Shown here one piece after another: positions 3,008 to 63,424 of a DNA stretch of 64,000 nucleotides. Source of the DNA: an uncultured Gammaproteobacteria bacterium. Its GTDB lineage: Bacteria > Patescibacteriota > Microgenomatia > 2-02-FULL-39-11. How positions within the stretch are numbered: the first letter of the stretch is position 1; each line of letters begins with the position of its first letter. The DNA is taken from the NCBI GenBank assembly GCA_964544585.1, contig CAZJBV010000001.1:119717-183716 (forward strand), read 5' to 3'. The notes under the pieces were generated by a model. It was not told where the DNA came from. It worked only from the letters and a program-made list of their open reading frames with translations, and did no database searches. The position numbers were made by a program, and so were the translations under genes.

Positions 3008-3379
3008 TTATAACAGGGCCTTATGGAGGACTTCGAGGGGAAGAAGGGCGCATTTGAGGCGGGTGGGGGTGAGTTCGACGCCAAGCATTTGTAAAATATC
3101 GTCTTTGTTTAGCTTTTGCAGATCTTTCGTTGATTTTCCTTTGGCTAGTTCTGTAAGCATTGAAGCAGAGGCCATGGAGATGGCGCAGCCTTCGCCGGAA
3201 AAACGGATATCTTTAATAGTTTGTAGTTTGTAGTGGGTAGTGTGTAGTTTGAGAAATATTTTGAATTTGTCACCACAAAGAGGATTTTCCTCCTCTGCCT
3301 TTTTATCATGATTTTCCAACTCACCAAAATTTCTGGGATTTCTATAGTGGTCAAGGATATTTTCTCTGTATAAATCCAT
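3008..3379 (-). CDS. sufU: SUF FeS-cluster assembly sulfur-transfer protein SufU (IscU/NifU-like)
   Basis: Carries the LCGDKFKIFL and GEGCAISMASASMLTE conserved cysteines and the C-terminal KCALL motif. It lies downstream of sufS. Confidence 0.8.
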   Translation of the reverse strand: MDLYRENILDHYRNPRNFGELENHDKKAEEENPLCGDKFKIFLKLHTTHYKLQTIKDIRFSGEGCAISMASASMLTELAKGKSTKDLQKLNKDDILQMLGVELTPTRLKCALLPLEVLHKALL

Positions 3380-3404: not shown

Positions 3405-4637
3405 TTAAATTTTAAATATCTTTTTTACTTTAAAGAGGCCTGCAACTAGTTTATCGACGTCTTCCTTTACATTATATATATAGAAAGAGGCACGGGATGT
3501 GGCGCCTAAGCCCAAGCGGATATGGAGAGGCATGGCGCAGTGGTGGCCTGATCTAATGCAAATGTTATCTTGGTTTAATATTTCTGCTATGTCGTGGGGA
3601 TGCAGACCTTTTATGGAAAATGCTACTACCCCACCTTTTATTTCAGGATCTTTTGGACCATAAATAGTCAATCCGGGAATTTCAGATAGTCTTTTTAGGG
3701 CGTATGATACGAGTTCTTTTTCGTGGGCACGAACGGCGTCTAACCCCAATGACGAGAGGTAATCGACTGCCGCACCTAGACCTATGGCTCCGGCGATATG
3801 GGGGGTACCGGCTTCGAATTTATGAGGAGGTTTTTTATAGATAGTATGATCAAGATGAACTTCTCTTATCATCTCTCCGCCCATCTGAAAGGGAACCATG
3901 GCATCAAGCAGATCGAATTTTCCCCAAAGAACTCCTGTGCCTGTCGGACCGAGCATTTTGTGGCCGGAGAAGACGAGAAAATCACAGCCAATTTCTTTGA
4001 CATTTACCGGCATGTGAGGGACGGATTGAGCAGCGTCGATAATGACTTTGATATCTTTGTTTCTTTTTTTGGCAATTTTTATGATTTCTTTAATAGGATT
4101 TATGGTTCCGAGAACATTGGATACGTGAGTGAGAGTAAGAATCTTAGTTTTGGGAGTGATTAGTTTATCTAAATTTTGCAAATTTAATTTATATTCATCA
4201 TTTATGTCGATGTACTTTAGGACTGATCCTGTTTCTGAGGACAACTCCTGCCAGGGAACAATATTGGCGTGATGTTCCATGACTGTGGAAATAATTTCAT
4301 CACCCTCTTCGATATTTAGTCTCCCCCAAGAATAGACAATAAGATTGATGGCTTCGGTGGCATTTCTGACGAATATGACTTCGTTTGGATTTTGGGCGCC
4401 AATAAATGTGGCGACTTTTTGCCGAGCCTGTTCATATTTTTCCGTTGCTTCTTCTGATAGAGTATAAAGACCGCGAAAGATATTGACTGAATACTGGGTG
4501 TAGTATTCGTTTATAGAATCGATAACTTTTTGAGGTTTTAATGAAGTAGCTGTTGAATCGAGATAGATGATAGGCTTGTTGTTTATTAGCCTTTTAAAGA
4601 TGGGAAAATCCACTTTGATTTGGGAATTAAATAACAT
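3405..4637 (-). CDS. sufS: cysteine desulfurase SufS (class V aminotransferase)
   Basis: A PLP-fold protein with the FSGHKMLGPTG lysine motif and the RSGHHCA active-site cysteine. The start is trimmed to the Met whose ATG abuts the upstream Rieske stop codon. Confidence 0.85.
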   Translation of the reverse strand: MLFNSQIKVDFPIFKRLINNKPIIYLDSTATSLKPQKVIDSINEYYTQYSVNIFRGLYTLSEEATEKYEQARQKVATFIGAQNPNEVIFVRNATEAINLIVYSWGRLNIEEGDEIISTVMEHHANIVPWQELSSETGSVLKYIDINDEYKLNLQNLDKLITPKTKILTLTHVSNVLGTINPIKEIIKIAKKRNKDIKVIIDAAQSVPHMPVNVKEIGCDFLVFSGHKMLGPTGTGVLWGKFDLLDAMVPFQMGGEMIREVHLDHTIYKKPPHKFEAGTPHIAGAIGLGAAVDYLSSLGLDAVRAHEKELVSYALKRLSEIPGLTIYGPKDPEIKGGVVAFSIKGLHPHDIAEILNQDNICIRSGHHCAMPLHIRLGLGATSRASFYIYNVKEDVDKLVAGLFKVKKIFKI

Positions 4638-4638
4638 T

Positions 4639-4947
4639 CTAAATCTCCACCAGTATATCATCCCCTTCAAGTTTGACGGGATAAATATTGATGGGAGATG
4701 GAGCTGGGGGTGAAAGCACCTTGCCGGTTGAAATATCAAACTGGGCTCCGTGACAGTAACATGTCAGAGTATATCCATCAAGGAAGCCGCCGGCCAAGGC
4801 GCAATGTTCGTGGGTACAAATACCATCAAAGGCAAAATAGTCGCCGTCGGTATTGGCAACGACAATAGTTTTGCCGTTTACATTATATTCGCGCATTTTG
4901 CCGGAGGGAAGGTCGGATTTTATAGCTACTTTGGTATACTCGGGCAT
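4639..4947 (-). CDS. Rieske [2Fe-2S] domain protein (suf-associated)
   Basis: Carries the two Rieske boxes, CTHEHC and CYCHGAQF. Confidence 0.75.
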   Translation of the reverse strand: MPEYTKVAIKSDLPSGKMREYNVNGKTIVVANTDGDYFAFDGICTHEHCALAGGFLDGYTLTCYCHGAQFDISTGKVLSPPAPSPINIYPVKLEGDDILVEI

Positions 4948-4950
4948 AGA

Positions 4951-5577
4951 TTAATTTTTCAATAATTGATCTATTTTATACTCTATTTTTTTTTCTAGAT
5001 CAATTTTAATATTTACATCTGTCACTTTGTTGACGACTTCTTGAAGGAAGCCTTTTATAATCAGCTTTTCGGCAAGTTTTCTTTCAAGGCCTCGTGTGGC
5101 TAAGTAAAATATTTCTTCCTCATTTATTTTTCCGATTGTGGCGCCGTGAGTGCAACGGACGTCATTGGCGAGGATTTCCAATTTGGGCCTCGAGTCGGCC
5201 CAAGCACTTTTCCCTATTAGTAAATTTTGATTTTTTTGATAGGCGTTGCTTTTTTGGGCGTCTTTTTCGATTTTAATGAGTCCTTCGTATGCCAGTCTTG
5301 CTTCATCAAAGAGGACCGACTTAATAAGGAGATCGCTGACGCTTTCTTTTTTTATATGATCCTGGAATGTATACAGTTTAATTTGTTGTTTTCCGGAACC
5401 GATAATTGTTCCTAAAATCTGGACATTGGAATTTGAGCCATCTATGTAGATTTTAACAGCGCCTTCTTGATTGTTATTATCAGTTAAAATAATAAAAATA
5501 ATTTTATCCTCGCCGGATTTGACGTAAAGTTCTTCTTCTTTTTGCAGTCGGTCAATAATAGAAATAGAATTTTTCAT
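4951..5577 (-). CDS. sufD: SufD-like FeS assembly protein (short form)
   Basis: Its position between sufB and sufS fits sufD. It has a beta-helix-like C-terminal region with the SAWADSRPKLEI...DVRCTHGATIG motif that resembles the SufB/SufD family. The start is trimmed to MKNSISII. Confidence 0.55.
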   Translation of the reverse strand: MKNSISIIDRLQKEEELYVKSGEDKIIFIILTDNNNQEGAVKIYIDGSNSNVQILGTIIGSGKQQIKLYTFQDHIKKESVSDLLIKSVLFDEARLAYEGLIKIEKDAQKSNAYQKNQNLLIGKSAWADSRPKLEILANDVRCTHGATIGKINEEEIFYLATRGLERKLAEKLIIKGFLQEVVNKVTDVNIKIDLEKKIEYKIDQLLKN

Positions 5578-5705
5578 CAACCTACGCTGCCTTCCCCCGT
5601 ACAATGCTTTCCGTTCGCGAGGGCTACGTCCTCGCCTCACGGTGGCGCATATACGGGGCTTCGAGCCGCAAAGCGGCTCTCGCATTTCTAACCTACGCTC
5701 CCTTC
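5578..5705. repeat. GC-rich hairpin insert flanked by 17-bp direct repeats (aacctacgctgccttcc / aacctacgctcccttcc)
   Basis: The second direct repeat encodes the last codons and stop of sufB. The first copy sits immediately before the sufD ATG. The interior carries the hairpins gagccgctttgcggctc and gcgaggacgtagccctcgc. Confidence 0.55.
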
Positions 5706-8102
5706 CATTTCCAGTTGAATAAGTCTATTTAGTTCGACTGCGTATTCGAGGGGGAGTTGTTTGACGATGGGTTCTATAAATCCATTGACGACCATGGCTT
5801 CGGCGTCTGGTTTGTTGATACCGCGACTCATGAGGTAAAATAATTGGTCATCGCCAATCTTTGAGACTGTTGCTTCGTGTTCGATGCGACAATCATTGTG
5901 TTTTATATCCATTGTCGGATATGTATCTGATCTAGACTCATCATCTATCAACAAGGCGTCGCAGACGACTTTGGATTTGGCGCCAATTGCACTTTGAAAA
6001 ACCTGAAGAAGTCCTCTATATGATGTCCTTCCTCCACCGTGACTGACCGATTTGGAAGTAATCTTCGAAGAAGTATATGGAGCAAAGTGAATGGCTTTTC
6101 CGCCTGCATCCTGGTGCTGGCCGGGTCCGGCATAGGCAACTGATAGCACCTCTCCTCGAGCTCCTTTGCCCATTAAATAGACGCTGGGGTACTTCATAGT
6201 AAGCTTGGAATTGTGAACTAAAATACCATTTGCAATAAAATTCCCTTTATCAACTTCTATATCAAATGTCTCTTTTGATCCTTGGGGTACAATGCTATTT
6301 ACTCGGACAAACTGAATTGTTGAATCTTTTTTATCATCTCCAAAATATAAGAAATGATGTTTATAAACTTTTTCTTCTATACCAAGTGGTTTTCTCTCTC
6401 TCCTTGTCCAAAGCGAAATTTTCCTTGGAGAAAATTTATCGGTTATGTAACTTAGGTCTTTGACTTGTTGTAATAATTTCTTATTTACCGATGTTATAGA
6501 TATATTTCTATGATTATCACGTCTATATCCATCTGCATCGATATAACCCTCGATGAATGATGTTATTTGGGATTTTGGTAATGTGTAGATCCATTCAGGA
6601 ACTTCTTTGTCTTGCGCTTTTCCTTTGAATCCAAGCTTTACCAAAAAATCAACAAATTTTGTGGAAGCATAACGAACAATATTTCTTTTTATTTCGGGTT
6701 TAAGTCCAAAAAGCTTATTTATTGTTTCAATAACCTTTTTAAAGCTTTTATCACTTTGTGGAACAGCTATATATACTCTTGTTTTGTCCATACATCCATC
6801 ACCAATGTAAAAACCTAGAAGCCATAGCAATTCTTCGCTGCTTATTTCCGGATAGAAAAACTCCTTTTTACCACGTTTGGGGTTAAAATGTATGGGATAA
6901 TTTTTTCCTACCCATGGAAGTTTTCCTGATACTGCAATTAAATCTCCAACTTTTATTTTATCTAAAGGCATCCAATTGAAGTAAGAAATTTTTCCTTTCT
7001 TTTTTAAGACAAGAAAAGGATGATTTGCAGTTGCTTCTACTTCACGAAAATCTTCTGTTGTGATTTTGAAAACTGGAAGGGGGGGATTTTTAACTTTAGC
7101 TAACAATTTGGCTCTTGTTAAGGTAAATTCTGGAGTCATCGAGTATAAATAGTCGCCCGGTCGAATGTCTTTAATGGAAAGAACATGATCATTTGCTATT
7201 ATTTTCGCATCCTCTGTTAAACATCCTAAATTACCGTCGATCCACTCGCCAATTCCCTCTTCTTCGACTCGCATTCTTTTGGTGACGAGATTGTAAACAT
7301 TGGTCGACCAGTTTTGAATGGTGGTATATCTGACTCGTGCTCCTTTTTTGACAAAAATTTCAACAACAGCGGCGTGAAGTGAATCTGTGGTATAAACGGG
7401 AGCGGTGCATCCTTCGACATAATGAACGAAACTACCCTCGTCGGCGATTATTAATGTTCTTTCAAACTGACCCATATTGGCGGCGTTGATACGAAAATAA
7501 GCTTGTAGAGGAAGTTCCACATTGACACCTTTGGGAACGTATATAAATGATCCGCCACTCCAAGTAGCCGAATTTAAAGCGGCGAATTTATTGTCATGTG
7601 GTGGAATGATTGTGCTAAAATATTCTTTGACCAAATCCGGATACTCACGAAGTCCTGAGTCCATATCCAAGAATACTACTCCTTTTTTGCCGAGAGTTTT
7701 TTGGATGCTTTTATATACGACTTCTGACTCATATTGAGCTGAAACACCGCCAAGATATTTTTTTTCTGCTTCTGGAATGCCAATTCGGTCGTAGGTTCGG
7801 CGAATTTCAATAGGTAAATCCTTCCAACTTCTAGCTTTTTTTTCTGTGGGTTTTATATAGTAATAAATGTTGTCGAAATTGATTTTGGAAAGATCTCCGC
7901 CCCAAGCAGGGAGTGTTTTTTTATAAAAGATGTCTAGAGCATCATGGCGAAATTTTCTCATCCAATCCGGTTCATTTTTGTGGTATGAGATTTCATCTAT
8001 CACTAAATGAGAAAGTCCTTTTTTAGACTTGAATGAATAGCGTTCGGCCTCGTGAAAGCCTAGAGGGTAGGAATCGTTAATTGCTATTTGTGATGTGGGC
8101 AT
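5688..8102 (-). CDS. sufB: FeS cluster assembly protein SufB interrupted by an intein
   Basis: An 804-aa ORF. The exteins carry conserved SufB blocks (NWSTNVYNLVTKR, WIDGNLG | SKLTMKYPSVYLMG, GEVLSVAYAGPGQHQDAGGK). A 338-aa insertion begins with Cys and ends with HN, followed by Ser. Confidence 0.85.
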   Translation of the reverse strand: MPTSQIAINDSYPLGFHEAERYSFKSKKGLSHLVIDEISYHKNEPDWMRKFRHDALDIFYKKTLPAWGGDLSKINFDNIYYYIKPTEKKARSWKDLPIEIRRTYDRIGIPEAEKKYLGGVSAQYESEVVYKSIQKTLGKKGVVFLDMDSGLREYPDLVKEYFSTIIPPHDNKFAALNSATWSGGSFIYVPKGVNVELPLQAYFRINAANMGQFERTLIIADEGSFVHYVEGCTAPVYTTDSLHAAVVEIFVKKGARVRYTTIQNWSTNVYNLVTKRMRVEEEGIGEWIDGNLGCLTEDAKIIANDHVLSIKDIRPGDYLYSMTPEFTLTRAKLLAKVKNPPLPVFKITTEDFREVEATANHPFLVLKKKGKISYFNWMPLDKIKVGDLIAVSGKLPWVGKNYPIHFNPKRGKKEFFYPEISSEELLWLLGFYIGDGCMDKTRVYIAVPQSDKSFKKVIETINKLFGLKPEIKRNIVRYASTKFVDFLVKLGFKGKAQDKEVPEWIYTLPKSQITSFIEGYIDADGYRRDNHRNISITSVNKKLLQQVKDLSYITDKFSPRKISLWTRRERKPLGIEEKVYKHHFLYFGDDKKDSTIQFVRVNSIVPQGSKETFDIEVDKGNFIANGILVHNSKLTMKYPSVYLMGKGARGEVLSVAYAGPGQHQDAGGKAIHFAPYTSSKITSKSVSHGGGRTSYRGLLQVFQSAIGAKSKVVCDALLIDDESRSDTYPTMDIKHNDCRIEHEATVSKIGDDQLFYLMSRGINKPDAEAMVVNGFIEPIVKQLPLEYAVELNRLIQLEMEGSVG
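6210..7223 (-). mobile_element. SufB intein with LAGLIDADG homing endonuclease domain
   Basis: Starts at Cys (CLTEDAKII) and ends in VHN followed by the +1 Ser. Two LAGLIDADG-like blocks are present (LLWLLGFYIGDGC and FIEGYIDADGY). It is inserted at the conserved GNLG/S site of SufB. Confidence 0.8.
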
Positions 8103-8874
8103 AGCCTTTTTCCTCCAATTCTTGGGCTAATTTTGGTCCTCCGGTTTTGACTATTTTACCATTAATTAAAATGTGGACAATATTGGGAGTAATATATTTT
8201 AAAATTCTTTGGTAATGAGTGATCATTAGTACTCCTGTACCATTTTTTTTCAATATATTTATACCCTGGGCGACGATTTTGAGAGCGTCGATATCAAGGC
8301 CGGTGTCGATCTCGTCAAAAATGACAAACTTTGGTTTCAATACCAATGCCTGTAGCATCTCAAGCTTTTTTTTCTCTCCTCCGGAAAAACTTTCATTTAT
8401 AGAACGGCGTAAGAATTCGTGAGGGATATGAAGTAAATCAGCTTTTTTTGCCAATTCTTCGTTGAATTTCCAAACTGTTTGCAAGGCAGGATTAGCGATG
8501 GTCTTTGGTCTTTGGTCTTTGGTCTTTGGTCCATGGAGAGATTCAAATGCATTTTTTAATAAATTGGCAACGGTGACACCTGGGACAGGGATGGGGTTTT
8601 GGAATGCTAAGAACAAGCCAGCCCTGGCACGCTTATCTGGAGAAAGATTTCTCATGTCCGTCTTGTCAATTTGAAATTTGATCCCGATTGAATCGGGATG
8701 AAATTTATAGGAGGGGTGTCCCATGAGAGCCTGAGCAAGGGTTGACTTTCCAGAACCATTGGGACCCATCAGGGCATGGACCTCTCCAGACTTTATTTGT
8801 AGCGATATGCCTTTCAAAATCTCTTTTTTTTCTAAGTAAACATGAAGATTCTCAATAGTTAGAGTGTGCTTCAT
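8077..8874 (-). CDS. sufC: FeS assembly ATPase SufC
   Basis: Has the Walker A motif GPNGSGKST, the ABC signature LSGGEKKK and Walker B. Its ATG overlaps the upstream stop in an ATGA arrangement. It contains an in-frame heptamer repeat (PKTKDQRPKT). Confidence 0.85.
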   Translation of the reverse strand: MKHTLTIENLHVYLEKKEILKGISLQIKSGEVHALMGPNGSGKSTLAQALMGHPSYKFHPDSIGIKFQIDKTDMRNLSPDKRARAGLFLAFQNPIPVPGVTVANLLKNAFESLHGPKTKDQRPKTIANPALQTVWKFNEELAKKADLLHIPHEFLRRSINESFSGGEKKKLEMLQALVLKPKFVIFDEIDTGLDIDALKIVAQGINILKKNGTGVLMITHYQRILKYITPNIVHILINGKIVKTGGPKLAQELEEKGYAHITNSN

Positions 8875-9440
8875 ATCGGTAATGTTAAGTCGACGGAAGT
8901 AAAACTTTTCCCTCGGGTGGCCCAATCGACTTTTATTTCTCGCCTTCCTTTGGCATCGAGGAAATACAAAGCGCCATATTTTTTGCCGTATTCGTAAAGA
9001 CTCCTGGTGATTTTAACATCTGAAAGGCAATATTGGCAAAGAGCGTCCCACTCTCCTTTTTTGAAGTACTCAATGGCTTTTAGTCCATGACCCTGCTTTT
9101 TTGTTCCAATTGTGGCTTTCGCAAGATCATCGAGGGCAACTCTAAAGCCGAGAGCTTTTTGGGCATCTTCGATAATATCAAGAACGGGAAATTTGAAAAT
9201 ATTACCGAGATAGTAAGGGGCAAGAACTTCGAGATCAAATTTGCGAATATTGAATCCGACTAAAAGTGAAGCGTGCTCTAATTTTTTAAAGAGATAGATT
9301 AAATCTTTTTCCAGATATGTTTCAAACTTGTTTGTGGCATAATCATAAATTCCCACAACTGAAACTTTGAGTTTTCTGTGGTCGTAGCCTACATCGGTAA
9401 AGAGATTTTGTGTTTCTAAATCAAGAACTATTGGGTGCAT
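8871..9440 (-). CDS. DEDD-family 3'-5' exonuclease (DnaQ-like fold)
   Basis: Has the N-terminal Exo I motif VLDLETQ and length and pattern consistent with RNase T/oligoribonuclease-like exonucleases. Confidence 0.55.
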   Translation of the reverse strand: MHPIVLDLETQNLFTDVGYDHRKLKVSVVGIYDYATNKFETYLEKDLIYLFKKLEHASLLVGFNIRKFDLEVLAPYYLGNIFKFPVLDIIEDAQKALGFRVALDDLAKATIGTKKQGHGLKAIEYFKKGEWDALCQYCLSDVKITRSLYEYGKKYGALYFLDAKGRREIKVDWATRGKSFTSVDLTLPI

Positions 9441-41438: not shown

Positions 41439-43373
41439 CTAGCGTCTAGTTTTCAGAAACTCTAAAATGGATCTTTTTTTCTCGTCAAAGAGGGCATCGA
41501 TATAAGAGAGAAGATTGGCAGGATTTAAAAGGCAGCTTTTTATATTATATTGGCAGTCGGGGGCGAAGAAAATGGGAATATTTTTGGCGAGAATCTTTCC
41601 GTCGAGACTAATATAAATTTCTGTGTTTATACTTTTATCGGAACTAATGTCGATAAACCAAGGAGAAATTCTATAGGAATAATCGGTTGGGTAAGAAAAA
41701 TTTTGGAAAGATAAACCATTTCCTTTAATGTCTACTTTTTCCACTTGAGTTGCGCGACTAAATTTATTTCTAGGGAGGATAAAAATTCGGATTGGGTTTC
41801 TTCCGGCTATGGCTTTGGTATTATTCCAATAGACTATAGTTTTTTTGGGATCCATTTCTAATGGGCTTTTGTCAGGCTGGAAAAGAAAATCGAGATTTGA
41901 CAAAAGGTTTTGGTTTTTTATTCCCGGAATAAGTTCAAAAGAATCTTTTTTATCTAGTATTTGCAAAAAAGGAATTTCGTTTCCATTTATATCCCATCCC
42001 ATTTCGATGTATCCACTGGTTGGATTGAGGAAGAGTTTAGGGTGCCTAGGAAATGATAGAGTTACTTTCTTTCGTTTCTTCAAAAGATCGGCAAATAACA
42101 TGCCATTTGTGAATGAAGGATTTCTGCTTTTAGCAATTGTGATCGAATGGGGTCCGAAATGGACTTTAGTGTCGATGTTTGTTTTGTCTAATGAAATGCC
42201 GAAATTGAATTGGGAATTATCTAAAATATAGGGAACAATCCAGTAGGCAAAATCTAATCTTGCTGGATTTTCTTTGTATGGATCGTTTAGATTGGCATAA
42301 ATGCGTAGATCATCGAGGATCCAGTGATCTTCTTTTTTTATGACTCTTGCCCTATATGTTTTGCTAAAGTACCAGAAGACGGAGTTATTTTCCAAAGTTC
42401 TAGACGGGTTTTGGCTGTTTTGAAATTGAAAAATCTCGATAAACTTGCTGATGGGGAGGATGGCAATTTTTTCTTTTTCCCTCAGATCTTTCAAGTAGTT
42501 GAGTTGTCTCATATACTCTTTACCATAGTCATCCCAGGAAAAAGAGTTTTCGAAACCTATTAGTCCAAATCCATCATTCTGTTTTACTATCTCTTTGACA
42601 AGCTTCTCAAAATAGTTTTTTTCTGCTTTTGGATTTGAGAGGTAGTCATTTGGTTGAGAAGTAAAATAGGCTTTGGACGAACCATAATTTTTGAGAATAT
42701 CGGAAATGGTTTGACGAACAATAATAATATCCAGTTTATCTTCATCATAACCCGGGAGGAGAGGATGATTTTTAGATGGATAATAGGGTAAATTGAACAT
42801 TCCGCCATATAAGGTATAAGAATCTGTCTCGTATTGTTCCTTTGTAAGCTCGTGAAGATTTACTCCGTAAATGTCGTGGATATAATTTAGTGACCAAGCA
42901 TCTATCATCCAAGCAACTGTAAATTCTGGATATGTGCCAAAAATATTTTTATACTTAGTAAAAAGTGTATCGATGAGTTTTTTTCTTTCTTCGATCGTGT
43001 ATCCAATAAGAAATGTATTTTTGGCACTATTCCAATTGCTACCATCGGGAAAGCCTTTGTAATCCACACCACTTGCTGACGCGAGAGAGGGAGTAATTTC
43101 AAGAAGTAGACCGAGTTCGTCATCTTTGATGGGAGAAATATATCTTTCATTTAAAGCGTCGAAGCGGAGGGCCCAGGCTGTGGGAAGAGTCTGAATTTCT
43201 TTATCCTTTGATATGGTTTTTAATATATCAGTACTTCCATTTTGACAGCATGATTCGTCACCCCTAACCTGATTGATGATAAGAAAAGTGGGTTCTTTGG
43301 AAAGTGCGGGTTTAGCGAAAATAAATAATAGAATGATGAAAAGTCCTATTTTTTTTAGAAAATTTAATACCAT
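41439..43373 (-). CDS. large secreted hypothetical protein
   Basis: A signal peptide and a 644-aa soluble protein with no firmly recognisable motif. Confidence 0.4.
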   Translation of the reverse strand: MVLNFLKKIGLFIILLFIFAKPALSKEPTFLIINQVRGDESCCQNGSTDILKTISKDKEIQTLPTAWALRFDALNERYISPIKDDELGLLLEITPSLASASGVDYKGFPDGSNWNSAKNTFLIGYTIEERKKLIDTLFTKYKNIFGTYPEFTVAWMIDAWSLNYIHDIYGVNLHELTKEQYETDSYTLYGGMFNLPYYPSKNHPLLPGYDEDKLDIIIVRQTISDILKNYGSSKAYFTSQPNDYLSNPKAEKNYFEKLVKEIVKQNDGFGLIGFENSFSWDDYGKEYMRQLNYLKDLREKEKIAILPISKFIEIFQFQNSQNPSRTLENNSVFWYFSKTYRARVIKKEDHWILDDLRIYANLNDPYKENPARLDFAYWIVPYILDNSQFNFGISLDKTNIDTKVHFGPHSITIAKSRNPSFTNGMLFADLLKKRKKVTLSFPRHPKLFLNPTSGYIEMGWDINGNEIPFLQILDKKDSFELIPGIKNQNLLSNLDFLFQPDKSPLEMDPKKTIVYWNNTKAIAGRNPIRIFILPRNKFSRATQVEKVDIKGNGLSFQNFSYPTDYSYRISPWFIDISSDKSINTEIYISLDGKILAKNIPIFFAPDCQYNIKSCLLNPANLLSYIDALFDEKKRSILEFLKTRR

Positions 43374-45004
43374 GCGTAAATTGTGACTGCATCGTTTTGA
43401 TAGACGGGTTTTAAAAAGGGATAAAATTCTGCGAGATTTTTGTTGCTAGCCCTTTCCCTCTCCTGTGGCCCAAAGAAGATATAACGAATACGTCCTGTAC
43501 GTAAAAACACTTGCGCTTCATTCCATGTCATGAGGCCAGTAAAAAATTTTTGTACTAGAGCATATTTTCTATCGTAGTCGTATGTGTTAACCTGACCAAA
43601 ATAGACTGTATTTCCGGCGTAGGCTGGGATATGATTTCCAGCCGAAATTTCGGCTACTATGACGTCGTCTCGGCGGGTGTTTTCACGTAAAAATCTCATT
43701 GCATCCATCCATTTTTTGAGGGGATGAACTGTTTGGGGTGGGTAGGCCACTGGGGGAATATTGGCGCGGGCTCGAGCGACATTGAATATATATTGCCAAT
43801 CCCAACTTAATTTCAAAATAAATAAATTTTCGATAAAATAAAGGATGAGAAATAGATAGATAATCGTTTTTGGAAAAATTTTTAACGATTGAAAGATTGC
43901 ATAATAACCTAAAATGCCTAATGGAATATGAATGCCCCCTTGGGTAAATCGGAGCGGGCTTTGTTCTTTATAATGAGTAAAAACTATAGAGTAGAAAAAT
44001 GAAACTACGATCCAAAGGATAAAAGGAGTCATTTTTTTGTCTTTTTGAAAAAGAGATACTATGATCCCGATAAACGCAAGGATGACAACTGGGCCAAGAG
44101 CCAGCAAATATTCGGTAAAGGGAATGAGCATATGATTTATTCTGTGGACATGGACGAGGGCAATCCAGGGGATTTGGCGGGTCAAATCCCAGATATAAAT
44201 TTGAGAGAGAAGGCTGACCAGCACAAAGAAAATGAGATATAAATGAGGATATAAATTTCGTGTTTTGATAATTTTTATAATGGCAAAAAGAATGATGACC
44301 GAATTAAGAGTGATAAGACTGGGGGGGAAAATTAGGCCTAAAATATTTCCAACTATTGCATAAATTAATATGTCTTTTGACGTCACGATCCAATTTTTTT
44401 TGAGAAGAAAATAAAAAACTAGAAATGAGACTATCTGGCCAAAAAGGATATGGGGGATAAAGGCAATTCTTTGGAGGCTATCGATATTTGACCACCATTC
44501 CATGTATCTTTGGACAATTAATTGCCCTCCTTCGCCTGTGGTAAATTTTGGAAAACTGCTCGAAACAACAATTGTTATAAATCCAATAATTTGCCAGAGA
44601 CTATTTTTAAATACATGAGTTGTAAGAAGGAAAATAACAAGTAGAAGAATTGGGGTGAGCATAAGTCTACCGAGCTGGTAGGAAAAATTGGGATCAAGGC
44701 CAATAATCTTTCCTATCATTCCTAAAATTGAATAAAAGATTTGGATGAGAGACCCTGAATGGGGTTCGCTTGAATAGAGTTCTTTGGGAAATAGTTTGCC
44801 TTCCTGTCCCTGGCGTATTTTTGAAAGATACAAATTGAAATCTGGCCAGTAATAGTTGTGTTCCAATATGAACTCCCGATTTTGATCGTAGAGTTTATTT
44901 GATAAAGATAGATCATGAATGGTGGGCAGAAATGAGAGGAAAGTAAAAAGAAAAATTAGAAAAGAAATAATGTGGAGTTTGTATTTTGCAAGAATCATTG
45001 ACAT
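43364..45004 (-). CDS. polytopic membrane protein (possible GT-C-like glycosyltransferase)
   Basis: At least 10 TM helices followed by a C-terminal soluble domain. The ORF's N-terminal 96 codons overlap rnpB and are trimmed to MSMILAKY. Confidence 0.4.
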   Translation of the reverse strand: MSMILAKYKLHIISFLIFLFTFLSFLPTIHDLSLSNKLYDQNREFILEHNYYWPDFNLYLSKIRQGQEGKLFPKELYSSEPHSGSLIQIFYSILGMIGKIIGLDPNFSYQLGRLMLTPILLLVIFLLTTHVFKNSLWQIIGFITIVVSSSFPKFTTGEGGQLIVQRYMEWWSNIDSLQRIAFIPHILFGQIVSFLVFYFLLKKNWIVTSKDILIYAIVGNILGLIFPPSLITLNSVIILFAIIKIIKTRNLYPHLYLIFFVLVSLLSQIYIWDLTRQIPWIALVHVHRINHMLIPFTEYLLALGPVVILAFIGIIVSLFQKDKKMTPFILWIVVSFFYSIVFTHYKEQSPLRFTQGGIHIPLGILGYYAIFQSLKIFPKTIIYLFLILYFIENLFILKLSWDWQYIFNVARARANIPPVAYPPQTVHPLKKWMDAMRFLRENTRRDDVIVAEISAGNHIPAYAGNTVYFGQVNTYDYDRKYALVQKFFTGLMTWNEAQVFLRTGRIRYIFFGPQERERASNKNLAEFYPFLKPVYQNDAVTIYAWY

Positions 45005-45048
45005 TATTATACAGCGAAATTTTAGAAAAAATGGTATAATATACTTAT

Positions 45049-45493
45049 CCTGCGGAGGCCGGATGACTGGGGGGTACCAGACGGTACCCTCAGGAAAGTC
45101 CAGACTGCTGTAGACAGAGGAATCGCGGCAACGCGTTATCCCGATTAAATTGGGACTGGTGCTTCGACGCCGAAAGGAGTCGGGGACGATTCCGGAATTG
45201 ACCGGATGAGAGAGCCACAGAGACGAGCAGTTATCTAAACCGCAAGGCATGATAGCTGGGTGAAACGAGGGAACGTAAAATTTGCTTCGCAAATTAACGT
45301 TCCTGTTGGCAATCCCACTTGCAGCAATCTCCGATTAGATCGACAAAGACTGATGTCTTCCAGATCCGCCAGTAGGCGGACAGGGATCTAAAGATTGAGA
45401 GCATCCCGCTCAGCGGGACGACAGGATGACTTTTATCATCAGTCGAGAGAAATGGTCATTTAAACAGAATCTGGCTTATGAGCCTCTGCAGGA
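45049..45493 (+). ncRNA. rnpB: RNase P RNA (bacterial type A)
   Basis: GGAAAGTCCAGAC (P4 5' strand), GGGTGAAACG and ACAGAATCTGGCTTATGAGCC (P4 3' strand) are conserved. The P1 helix pairs cctgcggaggc with gcctctgcagg. An extended -10 (TGgTATAAT) lies at 45032-45040, and a terminator hairpin follows. Confidence 0.85.
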
Positions 45494-54726: not shown

Positions 54727-55754
54727 TAATCAGATTTTTCTCTACCTGTTTTTTCTTTGGCGTGGCCGGTTTTATGTGCTTTATATATTTGTTCCAAAAT
54801 TTCGCGGGCTAATTTATGATTTTCTTTTAAGTACATTTTGGCTGCTTCTCTACCCTGACCGAGCATGGTCGTCCCATACTTTAGAAAAGCGCCGGATTTG
54901 GTGATAATGCTATATTCTAGGCCAACATCGATAAGACCCCCTTCTCTGGATATACCACTACTATCGATATCGAATTCTGCAATTTTGAAGGGAGGCGAAA
55001 CTTTGTTTTTGACTATTCTTACCCTATGACGTGTTCCTACCACCTGATCCCCATCTTTAAGAGTCTCTATTTTCCTGATATCGATCCTAATTGAGGCATA
55101 AAACTTGAGGGCCAAGCCTCCGGGAGTCGTTTCGGGATTGCCAAACATAATGCCTATTTTTTGGCGCAGCTGATTGGTAAAAAGACAAATTGTTTTGGAC
55201 TTGGAGATAACGCCTGTGAGTTTGCGAAGTGCTTGGGACATGAGGCGGGCCTGCATACCCATGACAGCATCACCCATCTCGCCTTCGATTTCGGCTCGCG
55301 GGACTAGAGCTGCGACTGAATCTATAACGACGACATCAACTCCCCCAGACCTTATTAATGTCTCTGCAATTTCTAGGGCTTGCTCGCCTGTGTCGGGCTG
55401 GGAAATAAGAAGATCTTCCAGTTTGACACCCAGTCTTTCTGCCCAGACGGGATCGAGGGCGTGCTCGGCATCAATAAAGGCGGCTACACCTCCGTGCTTT
55501 TGGGCTTCGGCAATAACAGTCAGAGCAAGGGTTGTTTTTCCGGATGCCTCGGGGCCGAATATTTCGGCGATTCGCCCTTTAGGTAAGCCTCCTATTCCTA
55601 GGGCAAGATCGACGGCAATAGAACCTGTGGGGATAACATCAATTGTTAGTTTTTGGGTTGACTCGCCTAATTTCATGATAGATCCTTTGCCGTACTGCTT
55701 TTCTATCTGCTCCATCGCCAGTTTAATTGCTTGGAATTTTTGGTCGTTTGTCAT
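54726..55754 (-). CDS. recA: recombinase RecA
   Basis: Has Walker [10 protein letters not shown], the L1/L2 loops, and highly conserved sequence throughout. Confidence 0.95.
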
Positions 55755-55808
55755 TGGGCCTCCTAATGAAATGTGGAAAATGTTTTGAGCAGGAATCGAT
55801 TTTTATTC

Positions 55809-57410
55809 TTACATAGATAATGCTAGAATACAATAGTTCAAAACGGGGTGTAGGTCATCGGTAGACCGCGCGCATGGGGTGCGTGAAGTAGTGGGTTCAA
55901 TTCCCGCCACCCCGACAGATAGAGAGTCCGCGAAGCGGACGGAAGGTTGGGTCTGCGCGCCCCCACTCGCGCAGACTTCTGCAAAGCCCTGATTATATTC
56001 TGGGACAAGCCGCCGATCAGTTAAAAAGAAGTTCGAGCCGACAGTTTTTGCCATGATCGACAGATCATGGGATGTATTTTTTGCGCGCGCGATTTTTGCG
56101 CACGATAGTGCGCTACCAATGAAGTTTTTGAAAGGTTCGAGCCAACTCGAACCATTTTGTTTTATTTGTTCTAATTCTTCACTTATTTTTAATTTTTCTT
56201 CGAAAAATTCGTTCTTTTTTGTCTTGTAAATTTCGGGGTCAATAATTCCTTCTAAGTAACCATCTAAGAGTTTATTAAGTTTTACATCAATATCTTTTAA
56301 TTGCTGCTCTAATTTTAGGGTATTATCGTGAATGGATACAGTCTCTAATTTCTCATCCTCATCTAGCCATTTATACCAATTACTAGCCCATTTTTCTGGT
56401 AATGCAACATCATCAATGGCTTTTCTAAATTGTTGTTCAAGCTCTGGTTCTGAAATGTAAGGTTGATTGCAGGGTTTAATTTTTTTAGTACATCTATAGT
56501 AAACATATTCAACAGTTCTATTTGTTCCTTTGTAGAATTTTTTATGAGATTCAGCGGTAATAGTTGCTCCACACTCTCCACATCTCATTAAACCCATAAA
56601 GGGGAAATTATATCTTCTTTTTTTATGTCTATCCCTAAACTTTAATTCTTGCTGGACTTTTTGGAATAACTCTTTACTTATAATAGTTTTATGAGTACCC
56701 TCGTGATATTCTCCGTTGTAATACATTATGCCTATGTAAAATCTGTCTGATAAAATCTGGCGGATTTGATTTATATGTAGGGGTTTATCAATTTTTCTTT
56801 TAAGGTCAAACTTATATAGAAAGGTCGCAATATCAGTAAAAGTTTTGTCGCCTTCGCTAAATAATTCAAAAGCCTTCTTAATTGCTTTTAGTTTTTCTCC
56901 ATCTACATCTATCCCACGGGTTTTAGGATTATTAATATACCCATAAGGAGCTTTGCCAGGATAAACACCATTGCGGATTTTTTGTCTTAACCCACGTCTT
57001 ACATTTTCAGATAAATTATCCACATAATATTTACTCTGACCAAAGGCAATATTTAACATAAATTTTCCCTGGGGAGTATTTTCAAACCAAGAGGTCGGAA
57101 ATTTTAAGTCCTTCAATTTCCCGGTATCTAAAAGGTAAATTATTTTCCCACCATCTATTGAGTTACGAGCTAATCTATCAGGATGCCACGCAATAATCCC
57201 TTGTATATGACCTTTTTCTATTTTCTTCAAAACTTCCGCAAATTTTTCTCTGCCCGGAATCTTGGCAGTTTTTTCTTCTTCAACAAATTCGGTAATTTCC
57301 AAATGCTCTCTTTTAGCGTATTCTTTTAGCTCGGCAATTTGAGCAGAGATAGATAAAATCTGTTTATCTTTTTCTTCTCTGGATTTTCTACAGTAAGCAA
57401 TGTATTTCAT
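55809..57410 (-). CDS. large serine recombinase (resolvase domain + recombinase domain + zinc ribbon)
   Basis: An N-terminal YCRKSREE...SISAQ catalytic-serine motif, a recombinase domain, and CGECG...YYRC. The last ~90 codons read through IR1-L and antisense tRNA-Pro (GIEPTTS), so the true C-terminus is uncertain. Confidence 0.8.
   Translation of the reverse strand: MKYIAYCRKSREEKDKQILSISAQIAELKEYAKREHLEITEFVEEEKTAKIPGREKFAEVLKKIEKGHIQGIIAWHPDRLARNSIDGGKIIYLLDTGKLKDLKFPTSWFENTPQGKFMLNIAFGQSKYYVDNLSENVRRGLRQKIRNGVYPGKAPYGYINNPKTRGIDVDGEKLKAIKKAFELFSEGDKTFTDIATFLYKFDLKRKIDKPLHINQIRQILSDRFYIGIMYYNGEYHEGTHKTIISKELFQKVQQELKFRDRHKKRRYNFPFMGLMRCGECGATITAESHKKFYKGTNRTVEYVYYRCTKKIKPCNQPYISEPELEQQFRKAIDDVALPEKWASNWYKWLDEDEKLETVSIHDNTLKLEQQLKDIDVKLNKLLDGYLEGIIDPEIYKTKKNEFFEEKLKISEELEQIKQNGSSWLEPFKNFIGSALSCAKIARAKNTSHDLSIMAKTVGSNFFLTDRRLVPEYNQGFAEVCASGGAQTQPSVRFADSLSVGVAGIEPTTSRTPCARSTDDLHPVLNYCILALSM
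55844..55915 (+). tRNA. tRNA-Pro (anticodon GGG)
   Basis: Cloverleaf: acceptor cggggtg/caccccg, D stem ggtc/gacc, anticodon stem cgcgc/gcgtg with loop aTGGGgt, T arm gtggg-ttcaatt-cccgc, discriminator A. Confidence 0.75.
55913..56015. repeat. IR1-L: 103-bp perfect inverted copy of 57519-57621
   Basis: Exact reverse complement of IR1-R. It starts 3 nt inside the 3' end of tRNA-Pro. It contains the internal hairpin gtctgcgcg-agtggggg-cgcgcagac. Confidence 0.9.
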
Positions 57411-57518
57411 TTTTTATTTTCCTCTTATAAGAAGAGTTCTTTTGCGAGCGAAGCGAGCAGTCCCGATGATATATCGGGACAAAATTTTTGCGTTCCTCGT
57501 TTTTTGTTCTTTTTAACC

Positions 57519-57700
57519 GGCGGCTTGTCCCAGAATATAATCAGGGCTTTGCAGAAGTCTGCGCGAGTGGGGGCGCGCAGACCCAACCTTCCGTCCGCTT
57601 CGCGGACTCTCTATCTGTCGACCTTTTTAAAAAAATCCGAACTCGCTTTAAGTCGAATCGGTAGGCGCGCTACGCGCGCCATCTTATCCGCTCGGCCTTC
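57519..57700. repeat. IR1-R (57519-57621) fused to IR2-L (57615-57700): the junction segment of two inverted-repeat-bounded modules
   Basis: The left 103 nt are the exact reverse complement of 55913-56015. The right 86 nt are the exact reverse complement of 62493-62578. Confidence 0.9.
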
Positions 57701-57850
57701 GGCCGAAGCTCTTAAACTGTCGGCCGAACCAGTCCGTAGGACTGCAAAAAACGCAAAAATTTTAAAGAACTTTTGTTATTTCTGTTTGCTTATTCCAATT
57801 TGGCATATTACATTTTGGAATATATCATATACTGTATCTTATTTTCAACT

Positions 57851-58078
57851 ATGAAAAAATCTATTTTTTCGGAGGATCATAAATATTTAGTAAGTCAACT
57901 TAAAAAAGCCAGAGAAGAAGCATCTCTTGAGCAAGAAGAGGTGGCTAAGTTACTTGGAAAAACTCAATCTTATATTTCAAAAATAGAGTCAGGTCAAAGA
58001 AGAATAGACATCGTTCAATTAAAACAATTTGCGAAGTTATACAAGAAAGAGGTTAATTTCTTTATTAAAAAGGCATGA
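57851..58078 (+). CDS. XRE-family HTH protein, probable R-M controller (C) protein
   Basis: A 75-aa Cro/C1-type HTH (QEEVAKLLGKTQSYISKIESGQR). Its stop overlaps the downstream ORF start (ATGA), as in C-R operons. Confidence 0.6.
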   Translation: MKKSIFSEDHKYLVSQLKKAREEASLEQEEVAKLLGKTQSYISKIESGQRRIDIVQLKQFAKLYKKEVNFFIKKA

Positions 58079-58920
58079 GAAGAAAAGAAATAATTAAATT
58101 TATCACCGGAATGATCGAAGAAGGTGGATTAACCTTTACTGATTATGCGACTAAACTCGAGGAGATAGTTAATAAACTATCGTTGGAAGATATAAAAATA
58201 AGCCTACTTGAATGTGGCGTAATCCCAGAGTCTTTTAATCACGATTCAACGGAAGAAAAATTATATTCAAAATATTCAGATATGTTACTTGCAAGAGCGT
58301 TCACATTCATCGGAATAGATTCCAAAGTTATTAAAGAAAGAGCAGATGCGGCAGATGTTGAGGGTAAAACTAAAGACTACACTCTTGTTGCAGATGGAAA
58401 GGTCTTTCGGTTAAGCCGAACTGCTAAGAATCAGAAGGATTTTAAGGTCGAAGCGTTAGATAAATGGAGGAACGGTAAAGATTTCGCTTGTTTGGTATCT
58501 CCTCTTTATCAATACCCTAAAAGTAAAAGTCAAATTTATAGACAAGCTATTGGTAGAAATGTTACCTTATTTTCCTATATCCACCTATATTTTATTCTCT
58601 CTCAAAATAAGTCGAACCAGTGCAACTATAAACCCTTATGGTTGGTTAGTAAGAAATTAAAAGGTGCAAAAGGAGCAGTAACTTATTGGAAGGGAATTGA
58701 TAAGACGCTTTGCAAAATCCTAAATAAAAGTCTAAAAGAGCTAGAAGCGATTAAAAAACTTGAGCTTGATTTACTAAAAGAATCTGCAAAAGAAGAAGTG
58801 GCATATATTGAAGGTAAAATTGAAACAATAAAATCATTATCACATACCGAGGCTATTGAGAGATTAATAAAAGCAGAAAAACTTGATCAGAAAATTAATC
58901 AAATAACAAGAATGGCTTGA
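58075..58920 (+). CDS. putative Type II restriction endonuclease (by context)
   Basis: A 281-aa protein with no family signature recognised. It is translationally coupled to the C-protein and convergent with the methyltransferase. There is a possible PD-(D/E)xK arrangement (GID ... DVEGK). Confidence 0.35.
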   Translation: MRRKEIIKFITGMIEEGGLTFTDYATKLEEIVNKLSLEDIKISLLECGVIPESFNHDSTEEKLYSKYSDMLLARAFTFIGIDSKVIKERADAADVEGKTKDYTLVADGKVFRLSRTAKNQKDFKVEALDKWRNGKDFACLVSPLYQYPKSKSQIYRQAIGRNVTLFSYIHLYFILSQNKSNQCNYKPLWLVSKKLKGAKGAVTYWKGIDKTLCKILNKSLKELEAIKKLELDLLKESAKEEVAYIEGKIETIKSLSHTEAIERLIKAEKLDQKINQITRMA

Positions 58921-60495
58921 TTAAAATAGAGGTTCCTGATTTACTTTACCATTTTTTGGATTAGAAACATAAGCTCCATTTAATCTTTTTTTGGCAATCT
59001 CGCAAAATTCACTGGAAATTTCAAAACCAATATATTTTCTATTAAGATTCTTTGCCGCAATAGCGGTCGAACCGGAACCAAGAAATGGATCCATAATAAC
59101 CTGACCATCTTTTGTTACAAGCCTAATTAAATATTCTAATAACTCCACTGGCTTCTGTGCTTCGTGTAGTCCTCCTTCGCCTTTGCCAAAACCAAACTGT
59201 AGAATATTTGTCGGAGATTTTCCGTTGATTAAAGACGCATCTATATTCATGGCTCCTACTTTATTTTTTAGTACATTATCTGTAATTGTAATTTCATAGG
59301 GTTTAAATAACCAGGCAATCGGTTCATATTTTGGCGCGAGATTACCAACCTTCCAACCTTCCCATTCCTTTGCTTCTTCTACCAATCCTCTTTTCTTAAT
59401 AATTTCACTTATATATTGAGCTCTGTGATGAGCATTTGGTTTTTCCCAAGCTAGGATATCTCTTAACAGAAACCCACTATCTTCAAGAGCTATAATTGCC
59501 CTGTGCAGAGTTCTTCTTGCGCCGAAAATAAATATACTTGCGCCTTCTTTTAAAGAAGGGTAGAGCTTTTTTGCCCACGAATAACACCATTCTTGGTATT
59601 CTTTTGGGATATTTCTGTCTGCGCTTGACCACCCATTAATAGGTTTTCCTCTTCTCCGAAATGCCTTTTTGCCTATCTGTGCAGGTGATTGTCCTAAAAG
59701 GGCGGAGTTTGTGTTAGCGTGTAAAACATCCCATTCATCCAGTGATATTCCATAAGGAATATCCGACAGAACTAGATCTATTGAATCCGGCTTCACCTTA
59801 TCTAGAAGTTCTATAGCATCACCACAAAGAATTTGATTTTCTTCAATATATTCGGATGGACTAACTTTATTTTCAGTTTCTGGAGGTAAATTAGTTTTGG
59901 TATTGAGATTTTTAATAATGTCAATAACAATTCCTTGCACAATTAAATTTTCTGGATCAACAAAAAATGGATCTAAACTTGAATTTGCTGGCTGAAGTCT
60001 TATTTTTCCTCTTTCCCTATATAATTTTTTCAAAGTTACTTCTGAATTGTTTATTAATGCAACTACTTTTTGTCCATTATCGGCTGTAGGTTGGCTTTTT
60101 ACTATTACTATATCTCCATGATCAATATTTTCATCAATCATACTTTGTCCAGCAACACGTAGGCCGTAGAAATCACCATTTTTCGGTATTTTTGATTTTG
60201 GTACTGCTATAAACTCTTTATCTTCAATAGCTAAAATTGGTTGTCCCGCAGCAATAGTGCCAAGCAGAGGAATCTGTACCATTTGCATCTCATCATACAC
60301 ATCAATTGCCCGAGGCTGATTTTCTTCTTTTCTTAACAAACCCAAATCTTCTAATGCCTTGACGTGATGATGGGCTGTTGAAACAGAGGATAGCCTTAAA
60401 TGCTTCTTTATTTCTTCCAAAGAAGGAGCATAACCATGTTTAGTTTTGTAGGATTTTATATATTCCAGAACTTGCTTTTGTCTTTTTGTAATCAT
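58921..60495 (-). CDS. LexA repressor (HTH + S24 peptidase) fused to a beta-class N4/N6 DNA amino-methyltransferase
   Basis: The N-terminal ~205 aa have the LexA architecture: a wHTH domain, the AAG cleavage site (TIAAGQP), catalytic Ser (AGQSM) and Lys (TLKKL). The C-terminal ~320 aa have motif IV SDIPYG preceding motif I DPFLGSGST (PF01555-like). It is a single open frame with no internal start. Confidence 0.75.
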   Translation of the reverse strand: MITKRQKQVLEYIKSYKTKHGYAPSLEEIKKHLRLSSVSTAHHHVKALEDLGLLRKEENQPRAIDVYDEMQMVQIPLLGTIAAGQPILAIEDKEFIAVPKSKIPKNGDFYGLRVAGQSMIDENIDHGDIVIVKSQPTADNGQKVVALINNSEVTLKKLYRERGKIRLQPANSSLDPFFVDPENLIVQGIVIDIIKNLNTKTNLPPETENKVSPSEYIEENQILCGDAIELLDKVKPDSIDLVLSDIPYGISLDEWDVLHANTNSALLGQSPAQIGKKAFRRRGKPINGWSSADRNIPKEYQEWCYSWAKKLYPSLKEGASIFIFGARRTLHRAIIALEDSGFLLRDILAWEKPNAHHRAQYISEIIKKRGLVEEAKEWEGWKVGNLAPKYEPIAWLFKPYEITITDNVLKNKVGAMNIDASLINGKSPTNILQFGFGKGEGGLHEAQKPVELLEYLIRLVTKDGQVIMDPFLGSGSTAIAAKNLNRKYIGFEISSEFCEIAKKRLNGAYVSNPKNGKVNQEPLF

Positions 60496-60602
60496 AGATA
60501 TTGACAGCTCAAGAATAATTCTATACAATTAGGTTAATCGAAAATGAATCGAAAGTCAAGTGGTTAAAATTTAACCTGAAGATTAAAGGGGGTGATGAAA
60601 AT

Positions 60603-60815
60603 ATGACTCATCGTAAAGGATCAAAACCAAATCATAAAGGAGAGCAGTGGACAGAATCACAAGTTGAGCGTCTTGAGAATTTGGCTAAAAGGAATACACC
60701 TACCCCTTTAATTGCAGATGCATTAGGTAGAACGGAGGGGGCAATAAGATCTAAAACATCGGAAGAGAATATTTCTCTTAAGCCAATCAATAAATCTCCC
60801 TATAGTAGAAGGTAA
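60603..60815 (+). CDS. small GcrA/Myb-like HTH protein
   Basis: W-T-E..V..L..L......P..IA..LGRT..A...K resembles the GcrA N-terminal/SANT-like DNA-binding fold. A good SD (aagggggtga) lies upstream. Confidence 0.35.
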   Translation: MTHRKGSKPNHKGEQWTESQVERLENLAKRNTPTPLIADALGRTEGAIRSKTSEENISLKPINKSPYSRR

Positions 60816-60836
60816 AATAGAATTGATAAAGCAATT

Positions 60837-62492: not shown

Positions 62493-62578
62493 AAGGCCGA
62501 GCGGATAAGATGGCGCGCGTAGCGCGCCTACCGATTCGACTTAAAGCGAGTTCGGATTTTTTTAAAAAGGTCGACAGA
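62493..62578. repeat. IR2-R: 86-bp perfect inverted copy of 57615-57700
   Basis: Exact reverse complement. Contains the hairpin ggcgcgc-tac-gcgcgcc. Confidence 0.9.
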
Positions 62579-62651
62579 ATACGAATTCACAGAAGAAGAG
62601 TCACGGAGGCTCTGCGCGGGTGGGGGCGGGGGGGATCCTTCAAGAATTGAA

Positions 62652-63314: not shown

Positions 63315-63424
63315 TTCTATTCAAAAAGCAATATATGTTTATTTTATATTATCATAAAACAGAAATAAGGGACCGCAATTTTTTGTAATATATTGCAATA
63401 TATTGGAAAATATTGGAAGATGCA

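Follow-up and report, generated by a model that had tools for sequence, protein, structure and literature searches.

Why does the sufB gene of a Gottesmanbacteria genome, a member of the Candidate Phyla Radiation (CPR), encode a protein of 804 amino acids, when about 466 would suffice? The gene lies in a 64,000-nt stretch of contig CAZJBV010000001.1 (positions 119,717 to 183,716), here called the window. Its open reading frame (ORF) covers positions 5688..8102 on the minus strand, as do all parts of the gene described below, and consists of 804 codons plus a stop codon according to the ORF list, while TIGR01980 and PF01458 identify the product as SufB. The original prediction, made from the letters of the window, had explained the excess length by an intein with a LAGLIDADG homing endonuclease at positions 6210-7223, and its numbers and coordinates proved exact. 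We find that the insert is almost certainly an intein, and that sufB very probably contains an in-frame class 1 intein with a LAGLIDADG homing endonuclease, which is the explanation that we favour. Domain models, junction residues, intein-free orthologs, homologs at the same site and a structure model all agree with the prediction on this point.

The precursor can be divided into three segments. The N-extein comprises amino acids 1-293 (7224..8102), ends in EWIDGNLG and matches positions 3-285 of TIGR01980. It is followed by an insert of 338 amino acids (precursor residues 294-631; 6210..7223), which consists of a HINT splicing domain in which a LAGLIDADG endonuclease is embedded, as identified by PF14890, two matches to PF14528, TIGR01445 and TIGR01443. 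The C-extein contains 173 amino acids plus the stop codon (5688..6209), running from SKLTMKYP to MEGSVG, and PF01458 matches precursor residues 628-775. In the translation, the insert begins with CLTEDAK and ends with GILVHN, immediately followed by Ser, and is flanked by WIDGNLG and SKLTMKYP. The TIGR01980 sufB model scores 673 bits in two stretches, the first of which ends at residue 294 of the precursor (position 285 of the profile), and the match to the SUFBD_core domain (PF01458) is also split in two by the insert. Deletion of residues 294-631 from the precursor leaves a SufB of 466 amino acids. When aligned to SufB of E. coli (5AWF), the junction is placed in the beta-helix core between G322 and S323, as counted along the alignment, and falls between the residues aligned with C254 and C405. 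The C-extein aligns to S323-G495 of the E. coli protein and contains the equivalents of C405 and H433.

The original prediction had pointed to intein-free sufB alleles in related genomes as a check, and such alleles are abundant. When one genome per GTDB species was scanned, 80 sufB loci were recovered, and in most of them the spliced 466-amino-acid extein matched as one uninterrupted tblastn segment. The peptide EW[IV]DGN[LI]GSK[LIV]TMKYP is continuous in 63 of the 80, and the spliced product aligns with these intein-free loci from end to end without a gap. Since the junction peptide is uninterrupted in 63 related loci, the boundaries of the insert are unambiguous; the predicted WIDGNLG/SKLTMKYP junction and the framing of the insert by Cys1 and by His-Asn followed by Ser are thereby confirmed. 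The nearest SufB relatives are also intein-free, with extein identities of 87% (locus L018) and 86% (L019, on a 1.1-Mb Gottesmanbacteria contig), and the best DNA match to the spliced junction of the window has 43 of 48 nt identical (L026). Empty candidate homing sites are thus common in sister species. Matches of about 1950 nt were considered as possible mini-inteins, but tblastn ruled this out by resolving them as SufB joined to the adjacent SufD, and the loci in question are intein-free.

Many metagenome-assembled genome (MAG) records with accessions starting with CAY or CAZ (among them L018, L024, L031 and L033-L036) encode SufB exteins that are 75-87% identical to the Gottesmanbacteria protein studied here. 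These records are titled “uncultured Gammaproteobacteria bacterium”, and the arrangement of their downstream SufD-like match is that seen at loci named as Gottesmanbacteria. We suspect that such titles are placeholders or reflect wrong taxonomy.

The insert scores above the curated cut-offs of the intein models, with 61.5 bits for Pfam Intein_splicing (PF14890; cut-off 35.8), 30.7 bits for the N-terminal splicing region (TIGR01445; cut-off 24.5) and 23.8 bits for the C-terminal splicing region (TIGR01443; cut-off 15.6). Together with the sufB score, these values are well in excess of what chance would produce. Residue conservation was assessed in an alignment of 12 inteins that are inserted at the same SufB site, here called GNLG|S, and in a broader alignment of 25 sequences. 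The block A nucleophile, Cys1 (7221..7223), is invariant in 12 of 12 inteins, as is L2. Block B reads TANHPF (7014..7031) and contains the TxxH residues Thr65 and His68; T65, N67, H68, P69 and F70 are all invariant in the smaller alignment. Blocks F and G, TFDIEVDKGNFIANGILVHN (6210..6269), include Asp321, His337 and Asn338 in the translation and correspond to the region in which TIGR01443 exceeds its cut-off. Here, D321, I322, E323, N328 and F329 of block F and G333, V336, H337 and N338 of block G are invariant among the 12 sequences. In the alignment of 25 sequences, H68 remains invariant, and C1, T65, D321, H337 and N338 are at least 90% conserved. The second nucleophile, Ser+1, is the first residue of the C-extein (6207..6209) and is a serine in all intein-free and intein-bearing alleles examined.

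The combination of Cys1, the block B residues T65-A-N-H68 and the VHN|S end is that of a class 1 intein, and it supports a class 1 splicing reaction that would use Cys1, Ser+1 and Asn338. We regard it as highly probable that the intein splices. Two points weigh on the other side, namely that splicing is here deduced from sequence rather than from biochemistry, and that the position in block F that is often a histidine is a glycine in the window intein (KGNF), although this position is variable across the family.

The two LAGLIDADG blocks that had been predicted are also present. The first motif, LWLLGFYIGDG (6795..6827), contains the catalytic Asp142, and the second, FIEGYIDADG (6528..6557), contains the catalytic Asp231, so that each motif ends in a catalytic aspartate. 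Pfam LAGLIDADG_3 (PF14528) matches the region in two stretches with 52.8 bits (cut-off 22.5). Residues W134, G137, G141, D142 and G143 of the first motif, G226, D231 and G232 of the second, and K206 are invariant in the 12-sequence alignment. The broader alignment of 25 sequences retains G141, D142, G143, P209, D231 and G232 as invariant residues, and K206 is at least 90% conserved. Lys206 (6606..6608) is the block D lysine, and we presume its role by analogy with the PI-SceI-type intein endonucleases.

The AlphaFold2 model of the intein, built from the 25-sequence alignment, has a mean predicted local distance difference test (pLDDT) score of 94.2 and a predicted template modelling (pTM) score of 0.90. 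Over residues 130-258 of the model, the secondary structure assigned with DSSP fits a pseudo-dimeric alpha-beta-beta-alpha-beta-beta-alpha fold that is inserted into the HINT domain. In a Foldseek search against the PDB, the top ranks were taken by inteins that carry an endonuclease: TliVMA (E 9e-24, TMq 0.78), PhoVMA, PI-PkoII, PI-SceI and PI-PfuI. At lower ranks, mini-inteins matched the splicing half and I-DmoI matched the endonuclease half. The modelled splicing half has a HINT fold and matches the Ssp DnaB, Mxe GyrA and Npu DnaB mini-inteins and the Hedgehog autoprocessing domain. The similarity to TliVMA was also detected in sequence with phmmer (E 3.5e-13). The SufB intein thus resembles TliVMA and PhoVMA (7QSU, 7QSS, 7QST), PI-SceI (1VDE), PI-PfuI (1DQ3) and PI-PkoII (2CW7) in its architecture of two domains, the LAGLIDADG domain being nested in the HINT domain, with Foldseek E values to these solved inteins from 9e-24 to 6e-14. 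It differs from them in that their hosts are V-ATPase, ribonucleotide reductase and DNA polymerase, and the sequence identity is only 13-20%. Furthermore, it is smaller than PI-SceI and PI-PkoII.

Based on these residues, the following reaction can be proposed. The entire 804-amino-acid precursor would be translated before splicing. Cys1 would then attack the carbonyl of Gly293 in an N-S acyl shift, aided by Thr65 and His68 of block B, after which the hydroxyl of Ser+1 would receive the N-extein by transesterification. Asn338 would cyclize with the help of His337 and free the intein, and an O-N shift would restore a normal peptide bond. The resulting SufB of 466 amino acids should be able to join SufC and SufD, and the operon context suggests that spliced SufB is needed. 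For annotation, this means a single SufB precursor of 804 amino acids with a product of 466 amino acids.

Could the insert instead have arisen as a chimera during assembly, or be a dead insertion that has turned sufB into a pseudogene? Such a reading might draw on the contig JACPKX010000015.1 (locus L084) of the NCBI assembly GCA_016186845.1 (Candidatus Gottesmanbacteria), which contains a 100% identical protein fragment from the same organism but ends inside the intein, 86 nt upstream of the intein residue Met29. It might also draw on the base composition of the intein, whose G+C content (GC, 32.3%) and G+C content at third codon positions (GC3, 22.2%) are the lowest compared to 50 ORFs in the window. 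However, three assemblies from separate read sets agree in every nucleotide across the whole of sufB, including both junctions, which makes a chimera very unlikely. The frame of 804 codons is intact with all splicing residues in place, homologs are inserted at the same SufB site in many phyla, and no second sufB turned up in scans of the window that took in part of its ORFs. Taken together, we give almost no credence to a chimera or a dead insertion, and retain the reading of a functional precursor interrupted by an intein. The NCBI record on JACPKX010000015.1 names a fragment of 483 amino acids as “SufD family”. We considered this protein as a misannotation but rejected the idea; the contig stops within the intein, and hence the protein starts there.

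Searches for homologous inteins returned 16 proteins with the single sequence and 43 with a profile of inteins from the GNLG|S site, for which 8000 candidates were scored. Nearly all of them are SufB proteins, and in all complete homologs inspected the insert is located at GN(L/I)G|S(K/R)(L/I/V)T. The hosts include Patescibacteria, Chloroflexota, Actinomycetota, Dormibacterota, Eremiobacterota, Nitrososphaerota, Micrarchaeota and Aenigmarchaeota. The window intein shares the site, the block structure and the catalytic residues with these inteins (P0002-P0026, L004, L005, L014-L016, L020), to which it is 33-55% identical over the full length, with none above 55%. The nearest relative is found in a partial protein (P0005) and is 55% identical to the window intein. 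The N-extein of this protein is far closer to the window than its intein, and the two proteins are 68% identical overall in one gap-free alignment. The window intein is a canonical and ordinary instance of a well-known class and belongs to a cross-phylum family with one SufB site; knowledge of how inteins work is unchanged by it.

The same insertion site is also occupied by another type of intein (type 2; L006-L013, P0017-P0025), which consists of about 406 amino acids, starts with CLAEGS, ends with SQGFIVHN and also contains a LAGLIDADG endonuclease. One of these is from another Gottesmanbacteria genome (L008). Unlike the family described above, the type-2 inteins are only 24-35% identical to the window intein, and they look like a second, unrelated intein lineage at the GNLG|S site. 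Their exteins are 76-78% identical to those in the window, the closest among the intein-bearing alleles. Two proteins (P0037 and P0042) contain type-2 mini-inteins at this site that have lost the endonuclease. Since empty, full-length and degenerated alleles all occur, the full homing cycle is represented at GNLG|S. The pairwise identities of inteins and C-exteins were weakly correlated (Spearman r 0.42 for type 1 and 0.16 for type 2), values that are descriptive only as the pairs are non-independent; this would fit a mixture of vertical descent and horizontal transfer.

A few homologs of the intein reside in other hosts, namely a TPP_enzyme_C protein, a DnaB helicase and an N6_N4 methyltransferase (P0036, P0046 and P0048, respectively), of which the first is 31% identical to the window intein over its full length. 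The window itself contains a TPP_enzyme_C gene (101-958; 285 amino acids), the sole Pfam matches of which are TPP_enzyme_C and PFO_beta_C. No further copy of the GNLG|S intein family was found in the window, as a hidden Markov model search against all six-frame ORFs matched sufB alone, and no intein or LAGLIDADG domain was detected in 20 other window ORFs scanned against Pfam. The literature search returned no paper that names the GNLG|S group of SufB inteins and none that joins SufB, inteins and Patescibacteria; judging from titles and abstracts, none of the five papers found on inteins in the Candidate Phyla Radiation is about SufB.

If the endonuclease is functional, the freed intein or its endonuclease domain would cut intein-free sufB alleles across GAGTGGATCGACGGTAATTTAGGA|TCCAAGCTTACTATGAAGTACCCC, for which the candidate substrate is the intein-less sufB junction GAGTGGATCGACGGTAATTTAGGATCCAAGCTTACTATGAAGTACCCC. 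Repair from an intein-bearing copy would then convert the cut allele, a process known as homing. The original prediction took the Fe-S assembly operon to be a homing target, and this view is an inference from the empty sites in sister genomes. The further statement that selfish elements are active goes too far, as conserved catalytic residues indicate a capacity rather than activity, and no intein relative exceeds 55% identity.

The main alternative is that the intein splices but has become fixed, that its endonuclease no longer cuts, and that it is kept only as imprecise loss would destroy an essential gene, a state that belongs to the end of the homing cycle. The absence of any close relative, with 55% identity at best, is in line with such a resident intein, as are the much faster evolution of the intein than of the exteins and the endonuclease-less mini-inteins that occupy GNLG|S in other lineages (P0037, P0042). 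On the other hand, both catalytic aspartates and their flanking glycines are invariant among the 25 sequences, in which Lys206 is at least 90% conserved, the endonuclease domain is modelled without deletions and with pLDDT values mostly above 90, and the abundance of empty sites in sister species means that selection for homing could persist. We consider the fixed state a serious but less probable alternative, and lean slightly towards an endonuclease that is still active. Several observations temper this preference: a conserved catalytic aspartate is no proof of cleavage, the mini-inteins demonstrate that endonucleases at the GNLG|S site do decay, and there is no sign of recent homing, because the nearest intein relative is so divergent.

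Inteins in sufB were said in the original prediction to be known from mycobacteria and archaea, which is correct in general, but the intein studied in M. tuberculosis is located at another site. The intein in SufB of M. tuberculosis (Pps1, Rv1461) is a class 1 intein of 359 amino acids with a nested LAGLIDADG endonuclease (PMC8891592). It is flanked by an N-extein of 252 and a C-extein of 235 amino acids, with G-1, H-5, C1 at Cys253 and C+1 at Cys612 (PMC8891592). Other named SufB/Pps1 intein alleles, which include those of M. leprae (“SufB-b”), M. gastri, M. xenopi and Ferroplasma, are described as occupying sites other than that of M. tuberculosis (PMC5050341, PMC8891592). The window intein is similar to the M. 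tuberculosis intein in that it is inserted into the same host protein, is of class 1, contains Cys1, the block B His, a terminal His-Asn and a nested LAGLIDADG domain, and is of nearly the same size (338 versus 359 amino acids). Unlike the M. tuberculosis intein, which is inserted at VEG|CTAP and followed by Cys+1, it is located 62 residues downstream at GNLG|S and is followed by Ser+1. In the window, the sequence HYVEG|CTAPVY is contiguous, its residues -5 and -1 are His and Gly, respectively, and exactly 235 amino acids extend from CTAP to the end of the protein. The M. tuberculosis site corresponds to residues 231/232 of the spliced protein, which align with G253/C254 in E. coli, and is intact in the window SufB. 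The insertion at G252|C253 with Cys+1 that marks the M. tuberculosis-type allele was not found here. As aligned, the window intein is a different allele from the SufB intein of M. tuberculosis, in a comparison that covers the M. tuberculosis site alone.

Oxidative inhibition of splicing has been reported for the M. tuberculosis SufB intein (PMC8529194), which raises the question of whether the window intein now serves its host as a post-translational switch, such that conditional splicing gates SufB maturation and thereby Fe-S assembly under redox or metal stress, a role that has been proposed for SufB of M. tuberculosis. The identity of the host protein and the location of the site in the SufB beta-helix core, between the equivalents of C254 and C405 in E. 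coli, would be compatible with such a role. However, the mechanism in M. tuberculosis is a disulfide between Cys1 and Cys+1 (PMC8529194), and this redox pair is impossible in the window intein because the +1 residue is a serine. The single further cysteine in the intein, C144, is located within the endonuclease domain. The sporadic distribution, with 63 of the 80 relatives free of inteins, also speaks against a needed function. We find a regulatory role very improbable.

Related MAGs contain inteins at the VEG|CTAP site (L014-L017, L020), and these are 19-21% identical to the window intein. Four of the loci, L014, L015, L016 and L020 (from Fraserbacteria, Curtissbacteria, a Patescibacteria MAG and Gaiellaceae), have inteins at both VEG|CTAP and GNLG|S, and L017 from Gottesmanbacteria has an intein at VEG|CTAP only. 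A third SufB site is represented by a 651-amino-acid fragment (P0031), in which an intein in the N-terminal region ends in HN|SELVYHK at AQYE|SE and a second intein is located at VEG|C. The profile search with the GNLG|S inteins returned no mycobacterial hosts, a result that is uninformative as only 8000 candidates were scored. A query with an approximate C-extein of 235 amino acids of the M. tuberculosis type matched actinobacterial SufB fragments at 97-99% identity, and all 120 matches listed were of 404 amino acids or less, with no intein-sized protein and no M. leprae name among them. Thus, sufB of uncultured small-genome bacteria and archaea contains inteins at two sites at least, with two lineages competing for one of them, and the sufB inteins offer material for studying homing and cross-domain transfer beyond the usual replication genes. 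As a compact Cys1/Ser+1 intein of 338 amino acids with an intact endonuclease domain, the window intein may also be of use for tool development.

The low GC and GC3 of the intein stand out not only from the exteins (42.4% and 38.5%, respectively) but are also below the values of all 50 window ORFs (means 39.1% and 35.4%; z about -1.9 and -2.3). At most other loci, the GC content of the intein is just slightly under that of the host. The low GC content is mild evidence for either a foreign source of lower GC or a relaxed codon constraint, and no proof of recent transfer. No viral vector was identified, as the viral contigs carry distant inteins only, which match over short stretches at no more than about 35% identity. 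A more far-reaching hypothesis would be that GNLG|S is a shared and contested homing site for at least two unrelated cross-domain lineages, that the Gottesmanbacteria copy is still mobile and was horizontally acquired from a donor with lower GC, and that SufB, in which three or more sites are occupied and some alleles contain two inteins, is a hotspot outside the replisome comparable to DnaB or RecA. We put this forward as a speculation that is rather unlikely to hold in full. If true, intein lineages would circulate among uncultured bacteria (CPR, Chloroflexota, Actinomycetota) and archaea (DPANN, Nitrososphaerota) that occur together.

The surrounding genes on the minus strand are arranged in the order sufC-sufB-sufD-Rieske-sufS-sufU. 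The upstream gene sufC (8077..8925) encodes an ABC ATPase (PF00005). Downstream of sufB is a short sufD-like gene (4951..5685) of 244 amino acids, which matches the C-terminal part of SUFBD_core only (PF01458), and between sufD and sufS is a gene for a Rieske [2Fe-2S] protein of 102 amino acids (4639..4947; PF00355), which overlaps the listed ORF of the cysteine desulfurase gene sufS (3405..4739; PF00266). The last gene is a sufU-like ORF (3008..3379), as indicated by the ORF list and the NifU_N annotation on the identical NCBI contig.

Elsewhere in the window, two adjacent ORFs on the minus strand (41439-43373 and 43364-45292; 644 and 642 amino acids) have no Pfam match at E <= 1e-5. A large serine recombinase of 533 amino acids with Resolvase, Recombinase and Zn_ribbon_recom domains is encoded on the minus strand (55809-57410), and the 3' end of its gene overlaps a plus-strand gene for tRNA-Pro(GGG) at 55844-55916. 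The recombinase at tRNA-Pro may represent an integrated mobile element; a search of positions 55700 to 64000 revealed no att-like or tRNA-Pro-derived direct repeat. Beside the recombinase gene is an ORF of 535 amino acids (58921-60528, minus strand) that combines a LexA DNA-binding domain, Peptidase_S24 and an N6_N4 methyltransferase domain in an unusual repressor-methylase fusion.

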